32,000 bases of DNA from NCBI GenBank assembly GCA_004284765.1, contig NQJD01000018.1, forward strand, positions 16,304-48,303, in the 5' to 3' direction. The notes under the pieces are model-generated. The model was given only the letters and a program-made list of their open reading frames with translations. It was not told the DNA's origin and ran no database searches. The position numbers and the translations under genes were made by a program. The stretch's first letter is position 1. Every line of letters starts with the position of its first letter. Origin of the DNA: Candidatus Electronema aureum (lineage in GTDB: Bacteria; Desulfobacterota; Desulfobulbia; Desulfobulbales; Desulfobulbaceae). Shown here piece after piece: positions 479 through 13,435 of the stretch.

Positions 479-1201
479 ATGTGCGTCACCACCAAGAAGG
501 TTGTTCTATTCAGCGTACTGTCCCTGTTTATCAACGCGGCAGTCTGCAACATGTCTGAAGCAGCTGGTAAACCTGAAGTAAAGGTGCCAGAGGCTACCGC
601 ACCGCAAGGAAGCGGACAGGTTGAGCCGATTGCCGCAGCGGAGAAGAAGGTCGAAGTTACTGACGCATCTTTCCGCTGTCTTCATAAGATGACCAAAGTG
701 GGCAACATGTATGTTGACAATCTGCTTGGTGATCTTGAAGGAACACTTGCTGTTGCCAAGTCTTCTGCTGGCGGAGTGTATCCTGCTGGCTCGGTTGTGC
801 AACTCCTTCCCACCGAGGTTATGATCAAGCGGGAAAAAGGAGCTAATGATGAGACTAATGACTGGGAATTCTTTGTGTTAGAAGTTTCACCAGAAGGCAG
901 CAAGATCAAACAGCGTGGCTTCAATCCACCAGTGAAGAATATGTTAGGAAGCTGTATTTCTTGTCATAAGCAGGTGGCACCGCAAGCGGACATGGTTTGC
1001 GCGGCAGGTCAAGGCTGCCCGCCCATCGTTTTTCCGGGTGGTATCGATAATGCAAAGCTGATCTCGGCCCTGCAAAAGACAGACAAACGCTGCCCTTCTC
1101 CTGAGCCGCCCACCCCAGAAGAGATGGCAGAGTTGATCAAGCTCAAGAAAATGCTTGAAGCGCAGGCAGCAGCAGCAGCAGCAGCCGCTGGTCAGCCATA
1201 A
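479..1201 (+). CDS. secreted mono-haem c-type protein, possibly cytochrome P460 / c'-beta-like, with a poly-Ala C-terminal tail
   Basis: AGGAG lies 7-8 nt upstream of the ATG. The N-terminus is a signal peptide (KKVVLFSVLSLFINAAVC). There is a single CxxCH haem motif (CISCHK) preceded by NDWEFFVLEV...G, a layout reminiscent of the P460 family. The protein ends EAQAAAAAAAAGQP. Confidence 0.6.
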   Translation: MCVTTKKVVLFSVLSLFINAAVCNMSEAAGKPEVKVPEATAPQGSGQVEPIAAAEKKVEVTDASFRCLHKMTKVGNMYVDNLLGDLEGTLAVAKSSAGGVYPAGSVVQLLPTEVMIKREKGANDETNDWEFFVLEVSPEGSKIKQRGFNPPVKNMLGSCISCHKQVAPQADMVCAAGQGCPPIVFPGGIDNAKLISALQKTDKRCPSPEPPTPEEMAELIKLKKMLEAQAAAAAAAAGQP

Positions 1202-1293: not shown

Positions 1294-1959
1294 ATGCCCA
1301 GCAAGAGAATTGCTGTTATTCTGTCCGGCTGCGGTCATCGTGACGGCTCAGAAATCCACGAAGCCACGCTGACCCTTTGGGCCATTCACAAGCACAGAGC
1401 CGAGTATCAATGCTTTGCGCCGAATGTGCTGCAACATCATGTGCTGAACCATCTCACCGGCGAGGCAATGCCAGAGCAGCGCAACGTGCTGATCGAATCC
1501 GCCCGCATCGCTCGCGGTAAGATCAAGGACTTAGCCTTGTTTGATGCCGCTGCCTTTGATGGCTTGGTTATTCCCGGTGGAGTTGGGGCAGCCAAGAATC
1601 TCTGCACCTACGCCTTTGATGGCGCAAACTGCACGGTCAACCCAGACGTGGAGCAGGCGATCATCGCCATGCACAAGATAGGTAAGCCCATTGGTGCGCT
1701 TTGTATTGCCCCGGTTATTCTGGCTAAAGTCTTGGGCAAAGTAATTGTCACTGCTGGACAGGACGCAGCCACTGCAGCGGATATCAGCGCAATGGGCGGC
1801 TGTCATGCACCCACGTGGCAGGGAGAGATCATCGTTGATCGGGATAACAAGATCGTGACTGCGCCTTGCTATATGCTCGATTCTCGGCTTGATCAAATCA
1901 GCATAGAGACTGACAAGGTAATCGAGGCATTGATAGGCTTGATGGAGCCGAGCGCATGA
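1294..1959 (+). CDS. elbB: isoprenoid biosynthesis glyoxalase ElbB (DJ-1/PfpI superfamily)
   Basis: The protein is near-colinear with E. coli ElbB as I remember it: IAVILSGCGHRDGSEIHEATLTLWAI, NHLTGEAM, RNVLIESARIARG, LVIPGGVGAAKNL, KPIGALCIAP, DRDNKIVTAPCYM. Confidence 0.85.
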   Translation: MPSKRIAVILSGCGHRDGSEIHEATLTLWAIHKHRAEYQCFAPNVLQHHVLNHLTGEAMPEQRNVLIESARIARGKIKDLALFDAAAFDGLVIPGGVGAAKNLCTYAFDGANCTVNPDVEQAIIAMHKIGKPIGALCIAPVILAKVLGKVIVTAGQDAATAADISAMGGCHAPTWQGEIIVDRDNKIVTAPCYMLDSRLDQISIETDKVIEALIGLMEPSA

Positions 1960-2375
1960 AGAAGAGTCCCGCGCAGCTGTCCGATATCTTCACCTGTACC
2001 CGCTGTGGTTATTGCTGCCAAGGCGAGACCACGGTTTCGCTTGACCAAGAAGATCAGGCGCGGATGATGGCGGAACTCGGCCTGAGCCGCGAGGAGATGG
2101 AAGAACAATACTGGCGCGTGACTGAAGGCGTAGTGCAAATGCGAATCGTTGATCATCACTGCATTTTTTATACCGCAGAGAGCGGCTGCGCAGTGCATGA
2201 AGGCCGTCCTTGGCGATGCGGGCAGTGGCCACTGCATCCCAGCATCTTGGCCGATGAAGACAACTTCCGCACCATCCGTGAATCCTGTCCTGGTATCAAT
2301 CAAGAACTGAGCTGGGAGCAGTTCTGTGGGGTCTTCCGGCTGCTGCTGGAACAGGACAAGCGATTGCTCTGCTGA
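1956..2375 (+). CDS. YkgJ-family cysteine-cluster protein (putative Fe-S/Zn protein)
   Basis: N-terminal CxxCxxCC motif (FTCTRCGYCCQGE) and a later C...C..H pattern. ATGA start/stop overlap with elbB. Confidence 0.7.
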   Translation: MKKSPAQLSDIFTCTRCGYCCQGETTVSLDQEDQARMMAELGLSREEMEEQYWRVTEGVVQMRIVDHHCIFYTAESGCAVHEGRPWRCGQWPLHPSILADEDNFRTIRESCPGINQELSWEQFCGVFRLLLEQDKRLLC

Positions 2376-2402
2376 ACAAATGCAACTTCAACGAGATTCT
2401 GC

Positions 2403-3263
2403 ATGGGACAAACTGTCATCCTTTTCCTCGCAGCCAACCCGGACGGCACAGTCTGTCTGCGTGTTGATCGGGAGATCAAAAAGATAGAGCAAGGTCTGCG
2501 TGTTGCCGAGCAGCGCGACTGCTTTGTCTTCAAGACCTGTCAGGCTGTGACTGTGCCTGATCTGCGCCGGGCCATGCAGCAGCACAGGCCGCAGATCGTC
2601 CATTTCAGCGGACACGGCGACGGTGCGGCAGGGTTGTGTTTTGAGAGCGGGCAGGGCAAAATCCAGTTCGTTCAAGACGAAGCTCTGGCAGCCTTTTTCA
2701 GCATGTTTTCCGCCGAGGTGCGCTGTGTTGTCCTCAATGCCTGCTATTCCGAGGTGCAGGCTGAAGCCATTGCCCGGCATGTTGATTATGTGATCGGCAT
2801 GAGCGATTCCATTACCGATCAGGCGGCAATCGCCTTTTCTGTTGCCTTTTATGAAAGTCTTGGCAATAGTGAATCTATTGAATCCGCCTACAAATTCGCC
2901 TGCGCTGAAATAGCCCTTCTCGGCCTGAAAGAAGAGCATATTCCCAAGTTGATCCGCCGCCATGCGGCTGAGGAACGGAACATCGTGCAACCCTTTGTCA
3001 AAAGCGAGATTGAACATATCCAGCGGCTCGTTGCGGAAGACAAGCTCGAAAAAGCTCTGGCCGAATTTTTGATTTTCGCCGCATCAGCCGATGCAGAGAT
3101 AAAGCAGGAGGTGATCGTGCATCAGGCGGCACTGGCCAAGGCAGGAAAAGAGCGGCGGAAAGGCTTGATGGATACTGACAAGGAAGAGCAGATGCGGAAT
3201 AAGGTTCGTTATGCGCTGCTGGAACTGCTGAACGAACAGGCGGCGCGGCAGTTTGAAAATTAA
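2403..3263 (+). CDS. minimal CHAT-like (caspase-fold) peptidase domain fused to a C-terminal helical adaptor (effector-associated-domain-like) module
   Basis: ILFLAANPDGTVCLRVDREIKKIEQGL, then QIVHFSGHG (His71, nt 2613-2615), then CVVLNACYS (Cys114, nt 2742-2744). This is the strand-His-Gly / strand-Cys dyad layout typical of CHAT domains. Residues about 203-280 form a helical module homologous to the next ORF. Confidence 0.7.
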   Translation: MGQTVILFLAANPDGTVCLRVDREIKKIEQGLRVAEQRDCFVFKTCQAVTVPDLRRAMQQHRPQIVHFSGHGDGAAGLCFESGQGKIQFVQDEALAAFFSMFSAEVRCVVLNACYSEVQAEAIARHVDYVIGMSDSITDQAAIAFSVAFYESLGNSESIESAYKFACAEIALLGLKEEHIPKLIRRHAAEERNIVQPFVKSEIEHIQRLVAEDKLEKALAEFLIFAASADAEIKQEVIVHQAALAKAGKERRKGLMDTDKEEQMRNKVRYALLELLNEQAARQFEN

Positions 3264-3280
3264 GCTGACAGTTTTCCCTT

Positions 3281-3559
3281 ATGCCTGCGGCAAATGACAT
3301 AAAAGAACGGCATTCAGAAGTGCAGATGCTGTTTGCTGAGGACAACATCAACGAAGCCGTCAAGCGGCTCATGGATTTTGTCCGTGATTTTTCGCAGGAT
3401 AACAGTGACAACTTGAACGAGGTGATTGTCATCAGCAGCAGTTTTAGCCGATTAGAGAAGGCGGAACGACGTGGGACGCTCAGTTATGACGAGGTGGATC
3501 AGAAACGAAATAAGCTGCTGTATCAGGCTCTCGATCTTATGGAGACTGTCATCGCATGA
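3281..3559 (+). CDS. stand-alone helical adaptor protein (same module as the CHAT protein C-terminus)
   Basis: The 92-aa protein aligns with CHAT residues 205-277: VQMLFAEDNINEAVKRLMDF..NEVIVISSSFSRLEKAERRGTLSYDEVDQKRNKLLYQALDLM versus IQRLVAEDKLEKALAEFLIF..QEVIVHQAALAKAGKERRKGLMDTDKEEQMRNKVRYALLELL. Its stop overlaps the next start (ATGA). Confidence 0.55.
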   Translation: MPAANDIKERHSEVQMLFAEDNINEAVKRLMDFVRDFSQDNSDNLNEVIVISSSFSRLEKAERRGTLSYDEVDQKRNKLLYQALDLMETVIA

Positions 3560-4812
3560 ACAAGGAGCAGGCAATGCAGGGTATTGAACAGGCTGCCGCA
3601 GACCTTCGTGCCGCTATTGCCAGCAATCCCGGAGAGCACGGCACTGGTCTGGTGCAGTTTGCTAACACATACGCCTTGAAGAGCAGTCAGCGGCATTCTG
3701 CGGTTCTTCTCAAGCTAAACTGGACCAAAGCAGCGGACGAGGAGCAGCAGCATCGTGTTCTCCAAGACATGCTGGCCTTGCTTGAGGAAATTGTTGCCGA
3801 CTCTGCCAGCGGCACGGCGGGCGGGGAGCCGCCGCTGAACCAACTCATTGTCCGCGCTCAGGAACATGTTCCTGAGCCGCCGCATGATGTAGTTTTCAGC
3901 TGCGAAAATCTCGGCAAAACCTACAAAAAATCCGGTTTTCAGCTCAACGGCGTGAATTTGCAGCTTCGCTTCGGCGAAATCACCGGCGTGGTCGGCGAGA
4001 ACGGCAACGGCAAAACCACGCTGTTCCGCATCGTTGCCGGTGAACTGCTGCATGATCAGGGCAGCATCGCATATCCGCTGTTCGGTCAGGACAGCGCGGC
4101 AAAAAAGGGCATCAACTGGATCAAAGTCAAGGAGCAGATTGCCTATGTGCCGCAGGAGCTGCCCAAGGTGTATGGCAAATTAGAGGAGATGCTTCAGTAC
4201 GAGGCCGCCATTCACGGCATCCGGGGCAAAAAAAATCTGCGGGAAGTGGATTTCATTGTCCAGCGGCTGGAACTGAGCGAGCACTTGGAAAAACGCTGGA
4301 AAGAGCTGTCCGGCGGCTTCAAGCTGCGTTTCGCCTTAGCCTGCGCCTTGGTCTGGAAACCCAAGCTGCTAATCATTGACGAGCCGTTGGCCAATCTTGA
4401 TTTCAAGGCCCAGCAGGTGGTGCTAAGAGATTTGCGCAATTTGGCGGAGAGTCTGCGCTATCCCATGTCTGTGCTGATTTCCTCTCAGCATTTGCACGAG
4501 GTTGAGGCGATTTCTGATCAGATCGTCTTCCTTGACAAAGGCAAGGTTGAATTCAACGGGCCGAAAGAGCAGCTTGGCGAGGAACGCCGTTGCAACACCT
4601 TTGAGATGCTGGTGTCCTGCAAAGAGGAAGAACTGCGTGAGCATCTCCGGCGGCTTGCGCCGCAGCGGATTCAGCATTCCGGGGTTTCTTATGTGGTCAC
4701 GCTGCCGCTGGCGGTGGATGGAAGTAGGCTGCTGCGGCATCTGCTGGAATGCGGCGTGGAGGTGGAATATTTCCGGGACATCAGCCGGTCAATCAAGCAG
4801 TTGTTTCATTAA
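3556..4812 (+). CDS. ABC-transporter-type ATPase with a roughly 110-aa helical N-terminal extension
   Basis: Walker A GENGNGKTT, Q-loop VPQE, signature LSGGFKLR, Walker B LLIIDEPLANLD, H-loop SSQHLHE, and a C-terminal domain of about 90 aa as in ABC-2-type ATPases. The first 110 aa are non-ABC, helical and acidic. Confidence 0.85.
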   Translation: MNKEQAMQGIEQAAADLRAAIASNPGEHGTGLVQFANTYALKSSQRHSAVLLKLNWTKAADEEQQHRVLQDMLALLEEIVADSASGTAGGEPPLNQLIVRAQEHVPEPPHDVVFSCENLGKTYKKSGFQLNGVNLQLRFGEITGVVGENGNGKTTLFRIVAGELLHDQGSIAYPLFGQDSAAKKGINWIKVKEQIAYVPQELPKVYGKLEEMLQYEAAIHGIRGKKNLREVDFIVQRLELSEHLEKRWKELSGGFKLRFALACALVWKPKLLIIDEPLANLDFKAQQVVLRDLRNLAESLRYPMSVLISSQHLHEVEAISDQIVFLDKGKVEFNGPKEQLGEERRCNTFEMLVSCKEEELREHLRRLAPQRIQHSGVSYVVTLPLAVDGSRLLRHLLECGVEVEYFRDISRSIKQLFH

Positions 4813-4829
4813 TTGGCAGAGCATTTACG

Positions 4830-5615
4830 ATGATTCCTATTTTTTTCAAGAAATTGGATCAGAATTTGAGGGTGAATTATCCGATAGTTTGGCGGACGCG
4901 AATTCACTATTTTTTCTGGTATCTTTTAATACTTTTAATGTTGACTTTCTTAGCGAAATTATTTAATTCAAATAAGCTGGATTTTTTATATAAATCAAAA
5001 GGAAATCAAGAACTTTGCATGATTATATTGACATTTCTGTCAATCTTTGTACTGCATCCGTTTTATCATCCAATCGGTGACAATCGATTAGTTAAATGTA
5101 TTTTTACTACATTATGCTATAGTTTATGTTTTTTTTCTATGTCGTCAATTATGATCCTGACCATATTACCACGTATAGATTTGTCATATTATATTTTAAT
5201 AAATATATCTACGGCTTTAATAGTTACAGTTTCTTCGTCACTTAGAAGAATAAGCGATGACAATATGAAGATTTTATCTTCGTGTTGTTTAAGTGTAATT
5301 TTTTTGTTTGCTTTCATGTTCATGATTTATTACATAAACGATACAACAATAAAATATAAATATAGTTATATATTTACAATACCTTTGATTACAATGTTTT
5401 ACATTGCATTATTTATCGTTTTATCGCGACGCATCGCATCTTTTGTATTTATGTTTTTAACATTCTTCATTCTTATTTTCTTTTTATTGATTCCAGAGAA
5501 TTTCTATTTTTTTTATCCAGCGGAAAAATTGAGAGTAATTTATCTGTTTATAGCATTCAATACTATGATTGCTTTTAAAGTGCTGATTCGATATATATAC
5601 TGGCCAAAGCCGTGA
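4830..5615 (+). CDS. polytopic membrane protein (about 7-8 hydrophobic segments), probable membrane partner of the ABC ATPase; no family recognised
   Basis: The ATG at 4830 lies 17 nt after the ABC stop. The track start at 4749 overlaps the ABC gene and is GC-rich, so it is unlikely. The protein has successive F/I/L/Y-rich 18-25-aa segments. The gene is very AT-rich, and its stop overlaps the rlmH GTG (GTGA). Confidence 0.6.
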   Translation: MIPIFFKKLDQNLRVNYPIVWRTRIHYFFWYLLILLMLTFLAKLFNSNKLDFLYKSKGNQELCMIILTFLSIFVLHPFYHPIGDNRLVKCIFTTLCYSLCFFSMSSIMILTILPRIDLSYYILINISTALIVTVSSSLRRISDDNMKILSSCCLSVIFLFAFMFMIYYINDTTIKYKYSYIFTIPLITMFYIALFIVLSRRIASFVFMFLTFFILIFFLLIPENFYFFYPAEKLRVIYLFIAFNTMIAFKVLIRYIYWPKP

Positions 5616-6076
5616 GATTCATCCTCCCCTTCCTCGGCAAAACCAAGGAAAGCTACCTTGATCACGGCATCCGCGACTACGCCGAACGCCTGCGCCGCTA
5701 CGTGCCGGTGGACATCAAGGTGCTGAAAGAGCCAGGCAAAAATGAGCCGGATGCGGTGCTCATGGCCCGCGAGGCGGATTTGCTGCTGAGTCAGGCTGCC
5801 GCAGCTTCTCTGCTCGTGGCCCTTGATCCGGCTGGCCGCGAGCAGACCTCAGAAGATATGGCCGCTGCTTTAGAAAGCTGGGAAAGCCGAGGTCTGCACA
5901 CTATCTGCTTTCTCATCGGTGGCCATCTTGGCTTAGACCCGCGTGTACGCCAGCAGGCCAACGCACTTTGGTCGCTCTCCCGCCTCACCTTCACCCACGA
6001 GATGAGCCGCTTCATCCTGATCGAGCAGCTGTACAGGGCCTGTTCGATCAAGGCCGGACACAAGTATCATCGATAA
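5612..6076 (+). CDS. rlmH: 23S rRNA (pseudouridine1915-N3)-methyltransferase RlmH (SPOUT)
   Basis: LIGGHLGLDP...WSLSRLTFTHEMSRFILIEQLYRACSIKAGHKYHR matches the conserved RlmH C-terminus. GTG start. Confidence 0.9.
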   Translation: MRFILPFLGKTKESYLDHGIRDYAERLRRYVPVDIKVLKEPGKNEPDAVLMAREADLLLSQAAAASLLVALDPAGREQTSEDMAAALESWESRGLHTICFLIGGHLGLDPRVRQQANALWSLSRLTFTHEMSRFILIEQLYRACSIKAGHKYHR

Positions 6077-8358: not shown

Positions 8359-9771
8359 TTATTTAAGCTGTTGTTCGCAGCGCGGACAGGGTTTAAAGCC
8401 TGCTGTCCGCGCCACTCTGACATTGATAAATTGCAAGGAGGATTGGGGACTGCGGTGCTGCGGGCAGTCGGGCAGATGAAAGAGGCGGGTTTCTGGGTTA
8501 GCATGAACGAGCAGGCCAAGACTGACTGGCAGCACGGGCCTCTTCCGCCGATGATGTTTTCTCTGCCAGCGGGCGGACAGCTTTTGCCACGGCTTGAGCA
8601 GCATGGCCTCCAGTAGCCAGCGGCCAGCGGCGGTCAGCGGTTCAGGCAATACAGGCCGCTCTTGCTCGACTCGGTGAAAGATAAACAGCACCAGCACCGC
8701 AAACAGGGCATTGGGCAGCCAGAGACCGATGAACACCGGTACAGCCCGGTCTTCAGCCATCACTTGGCCAATGGTAGAAATTATGTAGTAGAGCACAAAG
8801 AAAGCTAATCCCAGCGGAATACCAATCGCCTTACGGCCCAACCCAGCCTGAAGACCGAGCGGCAAGCCAAGCAGACTGAGGATCAGGCAACCAACCGGCA
8901 TGGCCAAGCGATGATGATACTCGCTCATGAAAGTGATCACATCCTGAGGATGCGCGTCAGGACGATGAGCCTCTGCCAAGAGCTGCTCCTGCGACATGCT
9001 GCTTTTACTGAGCTGGGTGACATCGTCACCGTCAATCTTCGTGGGTGGCTTGAGCGGAATGCTCAACTGGTAGCGACTGAAACGGACGGTTTGACCGTCA
9101 AAGCCGCTGGTGCTGTGTAGGGTACCGTCGTGTAGTACGATGGTGACGGCCATCCGGCTGATATCAGCCTGCATCCGACCGTCTTTGGCCATGATGATGA
9201 TTGGCTGCTGACGACCCCGCATGTCTGAGACATAAACCCCCCGCCAAGCCCCGTCTTGATCTGTCTCATCAACATAGACTACCACCTCGCCCAAGGCTTC
9301 AGTGAACTTCTTCTCTTTAATCCCCTTGTCGATCTTCTCCTTAGCTAACTGATACATGAGCTGGCGCATGGCAATCTCACCTGCTGGGATCAAGCGGACA
9401 GAGAAATAACCGGTCAATGTCGCAATCGCGGTAGCCAAAAGCACCACGGGCGGCAGCATCTGACGCAAACTGATACCACAGGCTTTGAGGGCCAGCATCT
9501 CGCGATCATTGGTCAGGCGGGTGAAACCAATGATCACCCCAGTCATCCCGGCCATCGGAATGACATAGAGCAGGAGATGGGGAAAGATGTACGAGAAGAG
9601 ACGAATGAAGTCAGAGAGGCCGATGCCTAAGTCCAGCACGATTTCCAGTAAAGGAATCAGCCGAACGAGAAAGAACACGCTGTACAGGATGAGAAAACTG
9701 GCGAAAAACGGTGCCAGCAGCTCAGATGCAACGTAGCTGTACAGCAGCGGGGACAGGCCGTTACGGCGCAT
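8359..9771 (-). CDS. LptF/LptG-family LPS export permease with a C-terminal Ada-type zinc-ribbon-like extension
   Basis: YjgP/YjgQ-type N-terminus (LLYSYVASELLAPFFASFLILYSVFFLVRLIPLL), a periplasmic beta-jellyroll-length insert, then 3 C-terminal TM segments. The tail is FHLPDCPQH...ARTAGFKPCPRC. Confidence 0.8.
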   Translation of the reverse strand: MRRNGLSPLLYSYVASELLAPFFASFLILYSVFFLVRLIPLLEIVLDLGIGLSDFIRLFSYIFPHLLLYVIPMAGMTGVIIGFTRLTNDREMLALKACGISLRQMLPPVVLLATAIATLTGYFSVRLIPAGEIAMRQLMYQLAKEKIDKGIKEKKFTEALGEVVVYVDETDQDGAWRGVYVSDMRGRQQPIIIMAKDGRMQADISRMAVTIVLHDGTLHSTSGFDGQTVRFSRYQLSIPLKPPTKIDGDDVTQLSKSSMSQEQLLAEAHRPDAHPQDVITFMSEYHHRLAMPVGCLILSLLGLPLGLQAGLGRKAIGIPLGLAFFVLYYIISTIGQVMAEDRAVPVFIGLWLPNALFAVLVLFIFHRVEQERPVLPEPLTAAGRWLLEAMLLKPWQKLSARWQRKHHRRKRPVLPVSLGLLVHANPETRLFHLPDCPQHRSPQSSLQFINVRVARTAGFKPCPRCEQQLK

Positions 9772-11209
9772 GAGTCTCCGCTGCGGGTTGAGACGGCTGC
9801 TGCTCTTGTTGAACAGTCGGAGTCTGTTCAGGCTTGCCGATGATGTTCTTGATATTTACGTTGATCCAATTCTGATCCCACCATTCGACTGGGGTAACAA
9901 AGATGCCGTGGACGAGCATAGAGAAATGAAGATGGTCGCCTGCGGCCATGCCAGAAGTACCGGAACGGCCTATGATCTCATTCTTTTCAACCAGTTTATC
10001 GACGGTAGTTTCAATCCGACTGAGATGGGAATACAGGCTGCTGATGCCTTGGCCGTGGTCGAGGATCACCACATTACCGTAAATGCCAAGGTAATCAGCA
10101 AAAGCCACCCGGCCCCGGTTAGCGGCCCGGATTTCCGCGCGCTCATTGGAAGCGATGTCAATGCCGAGATGCGTCTGCTTGTCGATCTCCTGTCCCTTGT
10201 GAAAATATGTACGCTGATCGGCAAAACCAGCCCGACCCGCGCCCGGCATCCGCAGAAAGCGGTCCTGCCAGAGCTGGTCCGCCGCTGTGTTCTGACAGAT
10301 TTCACTGATCTTCTCCGCATTCCTCACCCGGACGGACTGATTAACAAAGAGATATTTCTCCAAGTCCGTTCCTTTCATTTCAGGGTAAGCCTGCTGGAAT
10401 TCAGGAATCTTCTTTTGCAGAAAACTCTCAGAGATTTCAATCCGATCATGCTTCTCTTTTGCCTGCTTAAAATACACGGAAAATGTCGCCTGTCCCTCAT
10501 TGCCGGCTTGGTCTGATCCCACTACCCGCGTATTTTCTGGTTTGGCACTGTCCCACGGTAACGCGATATAGGCGATATAGGTTTTGTCCTTCCCTTGCAG
10601 AGGAAAACCTTGGAAGAACTGTTTTTCGATCATCACCCCGTGCCGAGATAATGGTTCTGAAGAACTGTACAACACCATGCCGCTACCGCCCTGCTGGAGG
10701 TGCATCTGTGCATGTTCGACAGTGAGCATGGGCGGGGCAGAATCAACCAGCACCGAAAAACGGAGTTCGGTGCTGTTGCGCTTGAGCGAGAAGTCACAAA
10801 CAGCCACCACTAATTCAGCTGCGCCTTCCTTCAAGCCGAGGTTCTTTGGATCAATGGTCACAGTTTCTTTCACTTCCGCCGGACCAGCTTTGGCAAACCA
10901 CGACAAGCGAGGATACTGTCGATCAAAGAGCGGAAAAGTTGTGCCGTTCTGGAGTAGATTGATAGTAATCTGGCGGATGCCGCTCTTTTTATCTGCGGCT
11001 TGAACAGGCATATCCATTGCCCCACCGACAAACTTGATTTCCTTTTCAACCGCGACGGTAGGTTTTTCAAATTCAAACAGCACAAACAGTGCCGCGCCTG
11101 CCGCAACTACCAACAGCATCGACAGAGAGATCAGCACTAAGCGAGCTATTTCTTTAGCGTTGGCGGAACGGAAATATGTTTTGAAACCGCGTCGATTCTG
11201 TTTGATCAT
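9761..11209 (-). CDS. membrane-anchored M23-family metallopeptidase
   Basis: N-terminal TM anchor. The C-terminal LytM/M23 motifs are HLGIDIAS, GNVVILDHGQGISSLYSHL and GTSGMAAGDHLHFSMLVHG. Confidence 0.85.
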   Translation of the reverse strand: MIKQNRRGFKTYFRSANAKEIARLVLISLSMLLVVAAGAALFVLFEFEKPTVAVEKEIKFVGGAMDMPVQAADKKSGIRQITINLLQNGTTFPLFDRQYPRLSWFAKAGPAEVKETVTIDPKNLGLKEGAAELVVAVCDFSLKRNSTELRFSVLVDSAPPMLTVEHAQMHLQQGGSGMVLYSSSEPLSRHGVMIEKQFFQGFPLQGKDKTYIAYIALPWDSAKPENTRVVGSDQAGNEGQATFSVYFKQAKEKHDRIEISESFLQKKIPEFQQAYPEMKGTDLEKYLFVNQSVRVRNAEKISEICQNTAADQLWQDRFLRMPGAGRAGFADQRTYFHKGQEIDKQTHLGIDIASNERAEIRAANRGRVAFADYLGIYGNVVILDHGQGISSLYSHLSRIETTVDKLVEKNEIIGRSGTSGMAAGDHLHFSMLVHGIFVTPVEWWDQNWINVNIKNIIGKPEQTPTVQQEQQPSQPAAETHAP

Positions 11210-11238
11210 AGTCAGTCTCTTGTTATGGCGTATACTTT

Positions 11239-12795
11239 TTATTCATTCCAGATGATCTCATATCGTTGGACATGGAGATCAGGTACGGGGATCACAGTGA
11301 TCCGCTTGCTGATTGACTGCTCCAGCACGCGCACGTGTCCGGCCTCTTCCCGCAGCAACAGGTCGGCGACGCGAGGATTGACCCGCAGCGTGATATTATT
11401 ACTGCCGTTGATCTGCAACGCATCACGGGAGATTTTACGGAAGATTTCGTAACAGATCGTGCGCCGGGCTTTGACCACCCCTTCACCGCCACAGCACGGG
11501 CAATTTTCATTCAGCGTTCGCGAAAGGTTCTCGCTGGAACGCTGCCGGGTCATCTGCACTAAACCGAAGTCAGACATTCTGAGGATGTTCACCCGGGTGC
11601 GATCTTTTGTCATCGCCTCTTGCAACGTTCGGTACAATGTCTCCCGGTCTTGCTCGGTCTCCATGTCGATGAAATCAATGATGATGATCCCGCCGATATT
11701 GCGCAGCCGAAGCTGGGCCGCGATCTCGCGTACCGCTTCCATGTTGGTCTTGAAGATGGTCTCGCTGAGATCATTTTTACCCACATAGCGCCCGGTATTT
11801 ACATCGATTACTGTCAGGGCCTCAGTCGTCTCTATGATAAGATACCCGCCGGAGCGCAGCCAGACTTTTTTATCCGCAGCCCGATTGATAGCAGTCTCGA
11901 TGCCGTAGGCTTCAAAAAGCGGCACTTCGCTGTCATAATGGACAATCCGGCTTTTCAACTTGGGCGCAAAGGTGCTGACAAAGGCCAGCAGCCGTTCATG
12001 CACCTCTTGAGAGTCAATTACCACCTCGTTGACATTGTCGGTGAGTAGGTCACGGGCCGAGCGCAAGGCGAGGTCGATATCTTTGTGGACTATGCCGGGC
12101 ACGGGCGACCGAGGGGCGGCAGATTTAATATCATCCCAGAGCAGAAGCAAAAACTCCATGTCTGCTTCAATTTCCGCACTGGTGATGTTCTCCGCAACTG
12201 TGCGGACAATAAAACCGGTTCCAGCAGGCCGCAGGCTTTCAATCTTCTGCCGCAGTTCCTCGCGCACTCGCTCATCTTCAATTTTACGCGAAATGCCAAT
12301 GTGATTGGTTAGCGGCATGAAGACCAGATTACGGCAGGCCAAGGTGATGTGGCAAGTCAACCGCGCTCCCTTAGTCCCAATCGGGTCTTTGGCGATTTGC
12401 ACCATGACCGTCTGCCCTTCTTTGAGCAATTTTTCAATACCAGGACGAGTAGTGGCGGTGCAGCGATCGGTCAGCGAAGGATCATCGGGATAATGGCGAC
12501 GGCAGCAATGTGGCTCGTCATCAGCCATCCGCTCTTCTAATTGCGGTAAGGAAGAAGCATAAACATCATCTACATAGAGAAAACCGGTGCGATCAAGACC
12601 GATATCAACAAAGGCCGCCTGCATTCCCGGTAGCACGCGTACCACTCTGCCGCAGTAGATACTGCCGACTAATCCTTTTTCCGCAGGCCGCTCAATATGA
12701 AATTCAAGCAGATTACCACCCTCGACCAAGGCGATCCGGTTTTCATAAGGCGCGGCGTTGATCAGAATGTCTGTGTACATTGGTTTATTTTTCAT
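11239..12795 (-). CDS. rng: Rne/Rng-family ribonuclease (RNase G size class)
   Basis: S1 domain GSIYCGRVVRVLPGMQAAFVDIGL, a DNase-I-like catalytic core (IDVNTGRYVG, GGIIIIDFIDM) and the Zn-link CPCCGGEG. At 518 aa it lacks a long RNase E scaffold tail. Confidence 0.88.
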   Translation of the reverse strand: MKNKPMYTDILINAAPYENRIALVEGGNLLEFHIERPAEKGLVGSIYCGRVVRVLPGMQAAFVDIGLDRTGFLYVDDVYASSLPQLEERMADDEPHCCRRHYPDDPSLTDRCTATTRPGIEKLLKEGQTVMVQIAKDPIGTKGARLTCHITLACRNLVFMPLTNHIGISRKIEDERVREELRQKIESLRPAGTGFIVRTVAENITSAEIEADMEFLLLLWDDIKSAAPRSPVPGIVHKDIDLALRSARDLLTDNVNEVVIDSQEVHERLLAFVSTFAPKLKSRIVHYDSEVPLFEAYGIETAINRAADKKVWLRSGGYLIIETTEALTVIDVNTGRYVGKNDLSETIFKTNMEAVREIAAQLRLRNIGGIIIIDFIDMETEQDRETLYRTLQEAMTKDRTRVNILRMSDFGLVQMTRQRSSENLSRTLNENCPCCGGEGVVKARRTICYEIFRKISRDALQINGSNNITLRVNPRVADLLLREEAGHVRVLEQSISKRITVIPVPDLHVQRYEIIWNE

Positions 12796-13147
12796 CGCTT
12801 ATTCGCAACAGGCATAGTCTGACAACGCGGCGCGGGCAACTCAGGCAGGCAGAGGCGGTGAAAGATGTCGTTTCGGATCAGGGAACTCGTTTAGGTTAAC
12901 AGAAAAAGCCGAACAGACAAGCTGTGGCTGACTGATAAAACAAGTTATGATACCCGACTTACCTCGCTCTGCCAAGGAGGGATTGGTTGGCTTTGCCGGT
13001 TCTTATAAAAAAAATAAACCTCCTGCGTAACTCATAGAGAGTACAGCCTGAGCTGCGGCCTCTTCCGTTGAGCAGTGACAAATTGACAGACGAGACGATC
13101 AGCAATGACCGTCCCGGCTGATTGACAGAATGACAGAAACGCTTGCC

Positions 13148-13435
13148 TTATTGCTGCGGTTTATCGGTCTGCTCTCCGCTATCTTTGACCATCTCCTCCA
13201 TCTTTTGATTTTGTGCGTTTTGCAAGGCCTGTGAGTCATTGGCCTTATTTAAGGGCTTCTGGATTTGCTCAACCGCTTTTTGCGCTACCTTATCTGAGGC
13301 TTGCTCCACCACGCCTTTTTTTTCCTCACCCGGATTTTCCTCCGAGCAGCCGACCAGCAGCCCGAAAAGTGCTAGCCCACAGGCAGTGGCTTTGAGATAA
13401 CTTATGTTTTTCATTTTGTTGCGCATGGTTCTCAT
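13148..13435 (-). CDS. small lipoprotein, function unknown
   Basis: GAGGAA lies 8 nt upstream of the ATG. There is a signal peptide with a lipobox (LFGLLVGC) and a low-complexity E/K/Q-rich mature part. Confidence 0.55.
   Translation of the reverse strand: MRTMRNKMKNISYLKATACGLALFGLLVGCSEENPGEEKKGVVEQASDKVAQKAVEQIQKPLNKANDSQALQNAQNQKMEEMVKDSGEQTDKPQQ

Follow-up and report, generated by a model that had tools for sequence, protein, structure and literature searches.

The four-gene cassette at positions 2403-5615 of a 32,000-nucleotide (nt) window from the cable bacterium Candidatus Electronema aureum (assembly GCA_004284765.1, contig NQJD01000018.1, positions 16,304 to 48,303; "the window" denotes this whole stretch) is probably a conflict or programmed-cell-death system that is coupled by the effector-associated domain (EAD) EAD11 and has a membrane ATP-binding cassette (ABC) machine as its nucleoside triphosphatase (NTPase) core. 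Such a core differs from the soluble STAND, MoxR or GTPase modules. The cassette comprises 4 closely packed plus-strand open reading frames (ORFs) in the ORF listing of the window: an effector gene for a 286-amino acid (aa) CHAT protease with a C-terminal EAD11 (gene 1, 2403-3263), an adaptor-only gene for a 92-aa solo EAD11 (gene 2, 3281-3559), the core NTPase gene for a 418-aa ABC ATPase in which an EAD11-like N-terminal domain precedes a nucleotide-binding domain (NBD) and a C-terminal alpha/beta domain (gene 3, 3556-4812), and a membrane partner gene for a 261-aa polytopic protein of single-repeat form (gene 4, 4830-5615). A CxxCxxCC (YkgJ-type) gene lies upstream and rlmH downstream (SPOUT_MTase, E = 1.7e-45). 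A preliminary description, made from the sequence alone, had placed 4 same-strand genes between these flanks, joined by a 17-nt gap, an ATGA overlap, a second 17-nt gap and a GTGA overlap into rlmH. All 4 ORFs were recovered on the plus strand at those coordinates, and each junction agrees with direct reading of the sequence: the stop codon of gene 1 (3261-3263) is 17 nt from the ATG of gene 2 (3281), genes 2 and 3 share ATGA at 3556-3559, the stop codon of gene 3 (4810-4812) is 17 nt from the ATG of gene 4 (4830), and gene 4 and rlmH share GTGA at 5612-5615. A terminator scan found no site above shuffle background within the cassette, and a promoter scan of the cassette found nothing above that background except AT-rich promoter-like noise inside the membrane gene.

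The effector gene encodes a minimal caspase-fold catalytic core followed by an adaptor module. The CHAT domain (residues 21-162, 2463-2888) is recognized by Pfam (PF12770, 37.8 bits against a gathering score of 24) and by the PADLOC model "chat" (E = 6.5e-18), and its closest solved relative is the SAVED-CHAT protease (PDB 8TL0, E = 4e-18). His71 (IVHFSGHG, codon 2613-2615) and Cys114 (VVLNACYS, codon 2742-2744) align to ILHFIGHG and VVLNACCT of 8TL0, and the aligned residues, at chain positions 355 and 402, correspond to the published H375 and C422, each numbered 20 higher, which constitute the catalytic dyad of SAVED-CHAT (bioRxiv 10.1101/2023.06.23.546230). The minimal CHAT domain with an intact His and Cys, for which the preliminary description had proposed a profile and structure check, therefore holds, and the gene 1 product is a predicted caspase-fold CHAT cysteine protease with the catalytic dyad in place. 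Its C-terminal helical module, originally noted without a family name, turned out to be the catalogued domain EAD11 (PF19964, 55.1 bits against a gathering score of 26, E = 7.5e-15; residues 202-278, 3006-3236).

Gene 2 encodes a single EAD11 and nothing more (PF19964, 56.9 bits against the gathering score of 26, E = 2.1e-15; residues 11-88), with 28% identity to the module of gene 1 (E = 1e-9), so that its initial reading as a second copy of the effector module alone stands. The 92-aa protein has 100% identity to the Candidatus Electronema aureum protein P0121. The non-ABC helical extension of approximately 110 aa reported on the ABC ATPase is also present, and its four-helix part (residues 3-84, 3562-3807) appears related to the same family, if remotely. 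Indeed, the extension of the window protein has no Pfam match at E ≤ 1, and direct BLASTP against the 2 EAD11 modules returned no alignment. Nevertheless, a profile of the extension built from 114 family members aligned to the solo-EAD11 profile in hhalign (97%, E = 9e-11, residues 8-80), the precomputed Pfam record of one relative (P0089) lists EAD11 for its ABC protein, and the solo-EAD11 hidden Markov model (HMM) directly matches the ABC extensions of 3 Bacteroidota relatives (L009, 2e-12; L008; L024). Because of these 3 observations, together with the helices of the structural model, we treat the extension as a third, divergent member of EAD11. In hhalign, the solo profile also aligns to the effector modules (97%), whereas the ABC extension and the effector modules do not align significantly with each other. 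Thus, the solo adaptor is intermediate in sequence space, a three-way relationship that would fit a role of the solo EAD11 as a bridge. The principle of EAD conflict systems to which the preliminary description had appealed, the sharing of an adaptor, is accordingly seen here in EAD11 on the ABC N-terminus, on effectors and as a solo copy.

The NBD of the ABC ATPase (residues 112-345, 3889-4590) is delimited by Pfam ABC_tran (E = 3.5e-25, residues 130-279), by invariant columns and by an AlphaFold2 (AF2) model. The complete set of ATPase motifs described initially was recovered in conserved columns: Walker A (G147-T155, with K153), Q200, LSGG (251-254), Walker B D275/E276 and H312 are invariant or nearly so among 44 homologues. 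The AF2 model built on those homologues has a predicted local distance difference test score (pLDDT) of 90.8 and predicts, in order, a four-helix bundle (3-84), a linker helix, the NBD and the C-terminal alpha/beta domain; the latter (residues 346-418, 4591-4809) is family-specific, judged by the model and the conserved columns, and ends in YFRDISRSIKQLFH. The nearest structures in Foldseek are ABCA1/3/4/7, TM_1403, NosF and PmtCD, which we take to be the ABC-2/type V exporter class, with BceAB also listed; the alignments to ABCA and TM_1403/NosF span 310-512 columns and thus exceed the NBD alone. Against named ABC equivalogs of NCBIfam (GldA, DrrA, PQQ-ABC, PmtA and others), the protein scores at best 105-118 bits, compared with cut-offs of 302-403; judged by sequence, it is a clade separate from the named families. 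Among named homologues, that of Candidatus Electrothrix laxa is the nearest (84% identity). A single public contig is identical to the window, namely Logan contig L092 (SRR14559658; 100% identity over 1801-4912), in which the ABC gene call has 412 aa and begins at Met7 (MQGIEQ…), at 3574 rather than 3556. In relatives, however, the ABC start codon either overlaps the stop codon of the solo gene or is only a few bases away (L001, L003-L005, L087, L089-L091, L093-L096), which favors the 418-aa form.

The same core recurs in unrelated genomes with different effectors, which bears out the co-localization of homologues on which the initial hypothesis had been staked. ABC homologues were divided into a closer clade (at least 45% identity) and a distant clade (33-42%); generic ABC ATPases matching only residues of approximately 100-340, which made up over half of the matches listed in the contig scan with the ABC alignment, were excluded, and a metagenome scan with a narrower adaptor alignment gave 7 loci. 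In the closer clade, a solo EAD11 (92-101 aa) and an EAD11-ABC protein (409-423 aa) are followed by a 483-604-aa protein without a Pfam match, and this core of solo EAD11, EAD11-ABC and membrane protein is found in Proteobacteria and Bacteroidota. In most closer-clade loci (L001, L003-L005, L007, L087, L089-L091, L093-L096, L098, L099), the solo gene immediately precedes the ABC gene; it is absent in L088. The ABC gene is followed by a member of the membrane family in nearly every locus read with downstream DNA; an HMM of that family matches 17 of the 37 loci among the matches listed, nearly all of which have a downstream gene of 440-709 aa. While the core is constant, the gene upstream of it varies: it encodes CHAT-EAD11 in all cable-bacteria loci, EAD11-TIR in a tubeworm symbiont (L003), a member of Burkholderiales (L005) and 3 further loci (L090, L007, L099), a C14 caspase that has a helical tail and whose gene overlaps the start of the ABC gene in Dyadobacter (L014), and no recognizable effector in L087, L089, L091 and L004. 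Thus, the order CHAT-EAD11, EAD11, ABC and 490-aa protein in E. laxa (L001) becomes EAD11-TIR, EAD11, ABC and 591-aa protein in the tubeworm symbiont, and TIR, 98-aa protein, ABC and 569-aa protein in Burkholderiales. A single subtype (…QEvIvHQAALAK..KERRrGL.D...EEQ.RN+vRYALL-LL) accounts for both the C-terminal EAD11 of the CHAT proteins and the N-terminal EAD11 of the TIR proteins, indicating that the adaptor has been shuffled between effectors.

Two further upstream ORFs were considered as effectors and set aside: a 207-aa ORF in L098 looks spurious, and a 114-aa protein in L004 has a sub-threshold GIY-YIG match (16 versus 22.6 bits) and no EAD11. The locus lacking the solo adaptor, L088, has its membrane gene split into ORFs of 203 and 380 aa (L088:2427-4274); its ABC locus adjoins a Trypsin and Endonuclease_1 fusion of the NucA-trypsin type of Kaur et al. 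2020, and in the vicinity are genes of the kind common on conjugative elements (ArdA, PcfJ and DUF6878).

Among cable bacteria, the cassette occupies 3 different chromosomal sites: between the ykgJ-like gene and rlmH in the window, between TelA and an AF2212-like gene in L093-L096, and, in E. laxa, with a DDE transposase on one side and clustered PDDEXK_2, HepT/Polbeta and AAA_15/DUF3696 genes on the other. At the second site, L093:8963-9069 and L095:4231-4337 correspond to window positions 5577-5683, and the first approximately 70 nt of rlmH are kept (85% identity); rlmH itself is not at this site, and the remnant then breaks off. Such an rlmH remnant behind the L093 and L095 cassettes indicates that this copy once lay next to rlmH and took the 3′ junction with it when it relocated. 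The neighborhood of the E. laxa cassette resembles a defense island; furthermore, L087 adjoins a RES-Xre pair and L098 a ResIII helicase. In the E. laxa record OW818652.1 (L001:2749-4500 and 8782-13263), the transposase on one flank is of the DDE_Tnp_1 family, and the other flank carries DUF6922, PDDEXK_2, a multihaem cytochrome, the Polbeta/HepT toxin-antitoxin pair and an AAA_15/AAA_21/DUF3696 ATPase.

The cassette shares its architecture with the EAD systems of Kaur et al. (PMC7159879, PMC8195603), in which the adaptor is found on a terminus of the core NTPase and on swappable caspase-like or TIR effectors next door. As in the EAD-coupled systems delineated by Kaur et al. 2020, an EAD is located at the core terminus with more copies on adjacent effectors, and the effector varies (CHAT, TIR in 5 loci, C14 caspase or none) around a constant core. 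The distribution is likewise sporadic and includes multicellular or filamentous hosts; EAD systems favor multicellular hosts, an enrichment reported by Kaur et al. (PMC7159879), and the cable bacterium, a multicellular filament, is in line with it. The cores described by Kaur et al. are the MoxR-vWA ternary system, GAP1-type GTPases, STAND NTPases, NucA-trypsin, EACC1 and TRADD-N, unlike the present combination of a transporter-type ABC ATPase, a polytopic membrane subunit and an adaptor-only subunit. In its protease domain and aligned His/Cys dyad the effector resembles SAVED-CHAT/PCaspase of type III-B CRISPR (8TL0), which is activated via induced oligomerization and filament formation (bioRxiv 10.1101/2023.06.23.546230). 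However, the sensor of SAVED-CHAT is a SAVED domain that binds cA3 from Cas10, whereas the cassette has no SAVED domain, cyclase or CRISPR context, and its CHAT protein carries an EAD11 tail in place of the ligand-binding domain.

No specific named anti-phage system was found for the cassette in PADLOC-DB v2, which gave generic matches only (chat/SAVED_CHAT for the protease and mad3, mad8, AriA and PtuA for the ABC ATPase) and none for the solo or membrane proteins. A full-text literature search for "EAD11" returned no relevant paper, and neither "EAD11" nor "ABC" is present in the main texts of PMC7159879 and PMC8195603. Haliscomenobacter proteins with the architecture LRR + AP-GTPase + COR + EAD11 are the only EAD11 carriers in the available part of the supplementary tables of PMC8195603. 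Searches combining ABC transporter, TIR, caspase and anti-phage terms found no paper, although a brief earlier mention is possible. The statement that the cassette corresponds to no named defense system thus agrees with both the database and the literature searched, in which no ABC-linked EAD11 was described. The stronger proposal, a candidate undescribed conflict system, stands for the ABC linkage but not for the adaptor: the adaptor principle is known, the EAD11 family is already catalogued as PF19964 and listed in the Kaur et al. 2021 supplement, and NCBI names some of these proteins "Effector-associated domain-containing protein". New relative to the literature searched are the core, which resembles an ABC transporter, the adaptor-only protein as a constant subunit and the hypervariability of the membrane component.

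Several observations weigh against a conflict system. In the window, the cassette sits among housekeeping genes (folA, rlmH), with which it may be co-transcribed. The solo adaptor has no homologue in phage or plasmid collections. Approximately one-third of the closer-clade loci have the solo gene but no adjoining effector (L087, L089, L091, L004). Among the matches listed, the distant Bacteroidota clade, mostly Flavobacteriales and Chitinophagales, consists of the ABC/membrane pair only, without solo adaptor or effector, and its neighbors include a GNAT acetyltransferase (3 loci), XseA and an M20 peptidase, so that the pair looks like a vertically inherited housekeeping pair. Finally, the AF2 model of gene 4, from a 10-sequence alignment, has a pLDDT of 53 and is unusable for judging whether the fold is that of an ABC permease.

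The main alternative, which we consider rather unlikely, is that the ABC ATPase and its membrane partner are a conventional exporter of the ABC-2 type or a pump for self-protection, for example against a membrane-active peptide or lipid, which EAD11 only regulates or localizes; on this reading, the pair has that role in Bacteroidota. CHAT and TIR proteins would then be later add-ons that answer pump overload, comparable to flux sensing by BceAB-BceS, and the variable membrane domain would track a variable substrate and not a pathogen. Effectorless loci and the many Bacteroidota in which the pair stands alone in housekeeping contexts would be readily explained, and the best NCBIfam and structural matches of the ATPase are DrrA, GldA, lantibiotic-protection ABC proteins, PmtA/PmtCD, NosF, ABCA and BceAB; with the exporters of the ABC-2/type V class (ABCA1/3/4/7, TM_1403, NosFY, PmtCD) it shares the NBD fold, the motifs and an extra C-terminal domain. 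Unlike those exporters, however, it has an N-terminal EAD11-like bundle, every ABC match falls far under the curated family cut-off, and its membrane partner matches no permease family of Pfam or NCBIfam and has no PDB sequence match. Moreover, an ordinary pump would not obviously require an EAD11 domain, a dedicated EAD11-only subunit or adaptor-bearing TIR, CHAT and caspase partners.

In the membrane protein, an N-terminal amphipathic helix is followed by approximately 8 hydrophobic helices, in keeping with its initial designation as polytopic. The gene has a GC content of 27%, compared with 52-55% in the surroundings, and all codon positions are shifted (GC at first, second and third positions, GC1/2/3, of 0.24/0.28/0.29 versus approximately 0.64/0.34/0.67 in neighbors); Ile, Leu and Phe make up 41% of the residues. 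The probability of a frame without stops is approximately 3e-9, none of 20,000 shuffles was open, and the other 5 frames contain 11-33 stops; a chance ORF or non-coding insertion was rejected on these odds and on the retention of family motifs. An earlier in-frame ATG is present at 4749, and the public gene call (P0146) is the 261-aa form. Searches of Pfam, NCBIfam, PADLOC and PDB sequence profiles gave no match, an exhaustive phmmer search gave 10, all via the N-terminal approximately 110 residues, and at 50% identity the allele remains a singleton in a set of 1.84 billion representatives. Of 9 sigma-70-like promoter matches found, 8 fall in this gene (5077-5601), on both strands; the cluster is probably a composition artifact, and the matches could otherwise be internal rlmH promoters or sources of antisense transcription. 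L092 stops 27 codons into the gene (window 4912), and L094 and L096 also end within theirs. Short-read assemblies seem to break at this extreme shift in composition, and the gene is therefore probably under-represented in databases.

The membrane family is defined by an N-terminal motif, LDxxLxxxYPIVWRTRxHYF, and a C-terminal RYxYWPKP, both kept in gene 4 (as LDxxLxxxYPIVWRTRIHYF and RYxYWPKP). The window protein has 261 aa, compared with 483-490 aa for its closest relatives and a range of 440-709 aa in other members. The N-terminal motif occurs twice in the long forms, the halves of which align mutually (hhalign 95.6%, E = 1e-8), and the gene 4 protein aligns to both halves; thus, the long forms are tandem two-repeat proteins and gene 4 is a single repeat. 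By analogy, we infer that the 2 sizes match the usual 2 membrane domains per NBD dimer. The long proteobacterial forms (L003:7264-9039, L004:7245-8960, L005:7264-8973) contain between the repeats, at residues of approximately 140-300, a non-hydrophobic insert of approximately 130-150 aa with conserved Cys, Trp and Tyr (…YAFHERYGFWCC…), which is missing from all cable-bacteria alleles.

The most striking new finding comes from comparison with other cable-bacteria contigs, which pinpoints the membrane subunit as the hypervariable part of the cassette: among cassettes with 94-98% DNA identity, only the membrane gene is exchanged for alleles that cannot be aligned. In blastn, the window and L093-L096 share approximately 94% DNA identity over 2408-4813, up to the ABC stop codon. 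Neither blastn nor alignments detect DNA similarity over the membrane gene, and similarity restarts at 5577, 39 nt before its end; codon-position GC and per-gene identities likewise mark out this AT-rich segment (4814-5576, third-position GC (GC3) 0.29). The CHAT, solo and ABC proteins of L093-L096 are 90-93%, 87% and 97% identical to those of the window, compared with 30-41% for the membrane proteins, mostly within the first approximately 110 residues. Even L093 and L094, which are 96% identical in DNA over 5.1 kb (CHAT 97%, solo 100%, ABC 98%), have membrane proteins with just 45% identity over 91 residues. Cable bacteria contain at least 4 alleles (261 aa in the window, 483 in L093, 490 in E. 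laxa L001 and a partial one in L094/L096), and the 3 complete alleles measured are all AT-rich (GC3 0.28-0.36). The conserved ends and replaced middle of the gene suggest replacement of the membrane allele by recombination, and the conserved N-terminal motif and C-terminal tail constitute a candidate ABC ATPase-contact surface.

The shortness and composition of gene 4 also raise the question of whether the window cassette is a decaying remnant in which a halved, AT-drifted membrane gene leaves the system non-working. The difference in length from the 483-490-aa closest relatives and the 440-709-aa proteins elsewhere, the singleton status and the extreme composition (41% Ile, Leu and Phe; GC1 0.24) would be expected of such a remnant. 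We nonetheless consider decay improbable: the reading frame is intact against the odds given above, the N-terminal motif, RYxYWPKP and the stop/start overlap with rlmH are retained, the 3 partner genes are intact, and gene 4, which aligns to both halves of the long forms, encodes one whole repeat and might function as a homodimer. Furthermore, the full-length alleles of L093 and E. laxa are AT-rich too, so that AT-richness is a property of the lineage and not a sign of decay. Least credible of all is a secretion or processing system in which the ABC/membrane pair exports a peptide or protein and an EAD11-docked CHAT protease cuts its leader, in the manner of the C39 peptidase domains of bacteriocin exporters, because, although a cysteine protease is tied by a common adaptor to an exporter-like ABC that resembles the phenol-soluble modulin exporter PmtA and lantibiotic-related ABCs, TIR, which cannot process a leader peptide, replaces the protease in homologous cassettes, the ORF listing contains no candidate precursor gene in the cassette, and CHAT proteases characterized to date act in cytoplasmic immune cascades.

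If the cassette is an EAD11-coupled conflict system, its parts suggest how it might work. The membrane protein, homodimeric in the case of the 261-aa form and fused from 2 repeats in other genomes, would carry 2 ABC subunits, with contact made through its conserved N-terminal amphipathic motif and C-terminal tail. The variable transmembrane part would detect an envelope trigger, for instance the entry or assembly of a phage, a membrane-active toxin or overloaded substrate flux, and ATP-dependent closure or opening of the NBD dimer would alter the presentation of the 2 N-terminal EAD11-like bundles. These bundles may engage the solo EAD11, which would bridge to, or regulate, the effector EAD11, thereby recruiting and clustering CHAT-EAD11. 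Clustering would activate the protease, for which the oligomerization-activated SAVED-CHAT offers a precedent; death-fold adaptors likewise activate caspases. The cell would then stop growing or die, sparing the rest of the filament. The preliminary description had likewise proposed sensing of envelope or infection stress by the ABC/membrane pair, recruitment of the protease through adaptor contacts and a bridge or decoy function of the solo adaptor, all of which are putative.

ABC machines that act as a sensor or mechanotransmitter and not as a plain pump are known from BceAB-BceS and FtsEX. Unlike their outputs, a histidine kinase and a hydrolase, the putative output of the cassette is a death-fold-like adaptor with a protease or TIR. 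Animal death-fold signaling proceeds from a receptor through a FADD/ASC-type adaptor to a caspase and includes CARD-only and PYD-only regulators. Similarly, homotypic helical adaptors would here join a sensor to a protease of the caspase fold, and one of the proteins is an adaptor alone. The analogy between EADs and animal death folds was drawn in Kaur et al. 2021 (PMC8195603). The likeness of the cassette is one of logic only, as EAD11 is linked to no Death-like domain and retrieved only itself in the available part of the supplementary profile network of PMC8195603. More tentatively, and as a possibility that we regard as short of even, the membrane ABC-like machine may represent an unrecognized class of immune sensor in which the hypervariable subunit, exchanged through allele replacement, sets specificity for phage or toxin activity at the envelope, and a three-tier EAD11 chain from ABC through solo to effector relays ATP-driven NBD movements to caspase-like or TIR executioners; it would then be a bacterial counterpart of receptor-adaptor-caspase signaling at the filament membrane.

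Should the assignment be correct, EAD conflict systems would gain a new type of core, in which an ABC ATPase of the transporter type works together with its own membrane protein. To our knowledge, the ABC-like ATPases of anti-phage systems (AriA, PtuA, GajA, LmuB) are soluble. The cassette would also provide a simple case for adaptor-mediated activation of a bacterial caspase-fold protease, with 4 small genes and natural CHAT/TIR swaps as controls, and an unannotated membrane family, the alleles of which are swapped between near-identical strains, a pattern usual for the part that contacts an adversary. It would, furthermore, be among the few candidate cell-suicide modules in cable bacteria, where the sacrifice of one cell in a conductive filament has obvious costs and benefits.

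Two features outside the cassette were noted. A 240-aa ORF at window positions 479-1201, for which the public record shows no Pfam match, has a signal-peptide-like N-terminus and several Cys pairs and ends in a run of 8 alanines (…EAQAAAAAAAAGQP). Just upstream of the first base of the window, L092:467-2587 contains recA 5′ of folA; in its 706-aa product a LAGLIDADG_2 domain lies between 2 RecA_N segments, and the protein is an intein-containing RecA.

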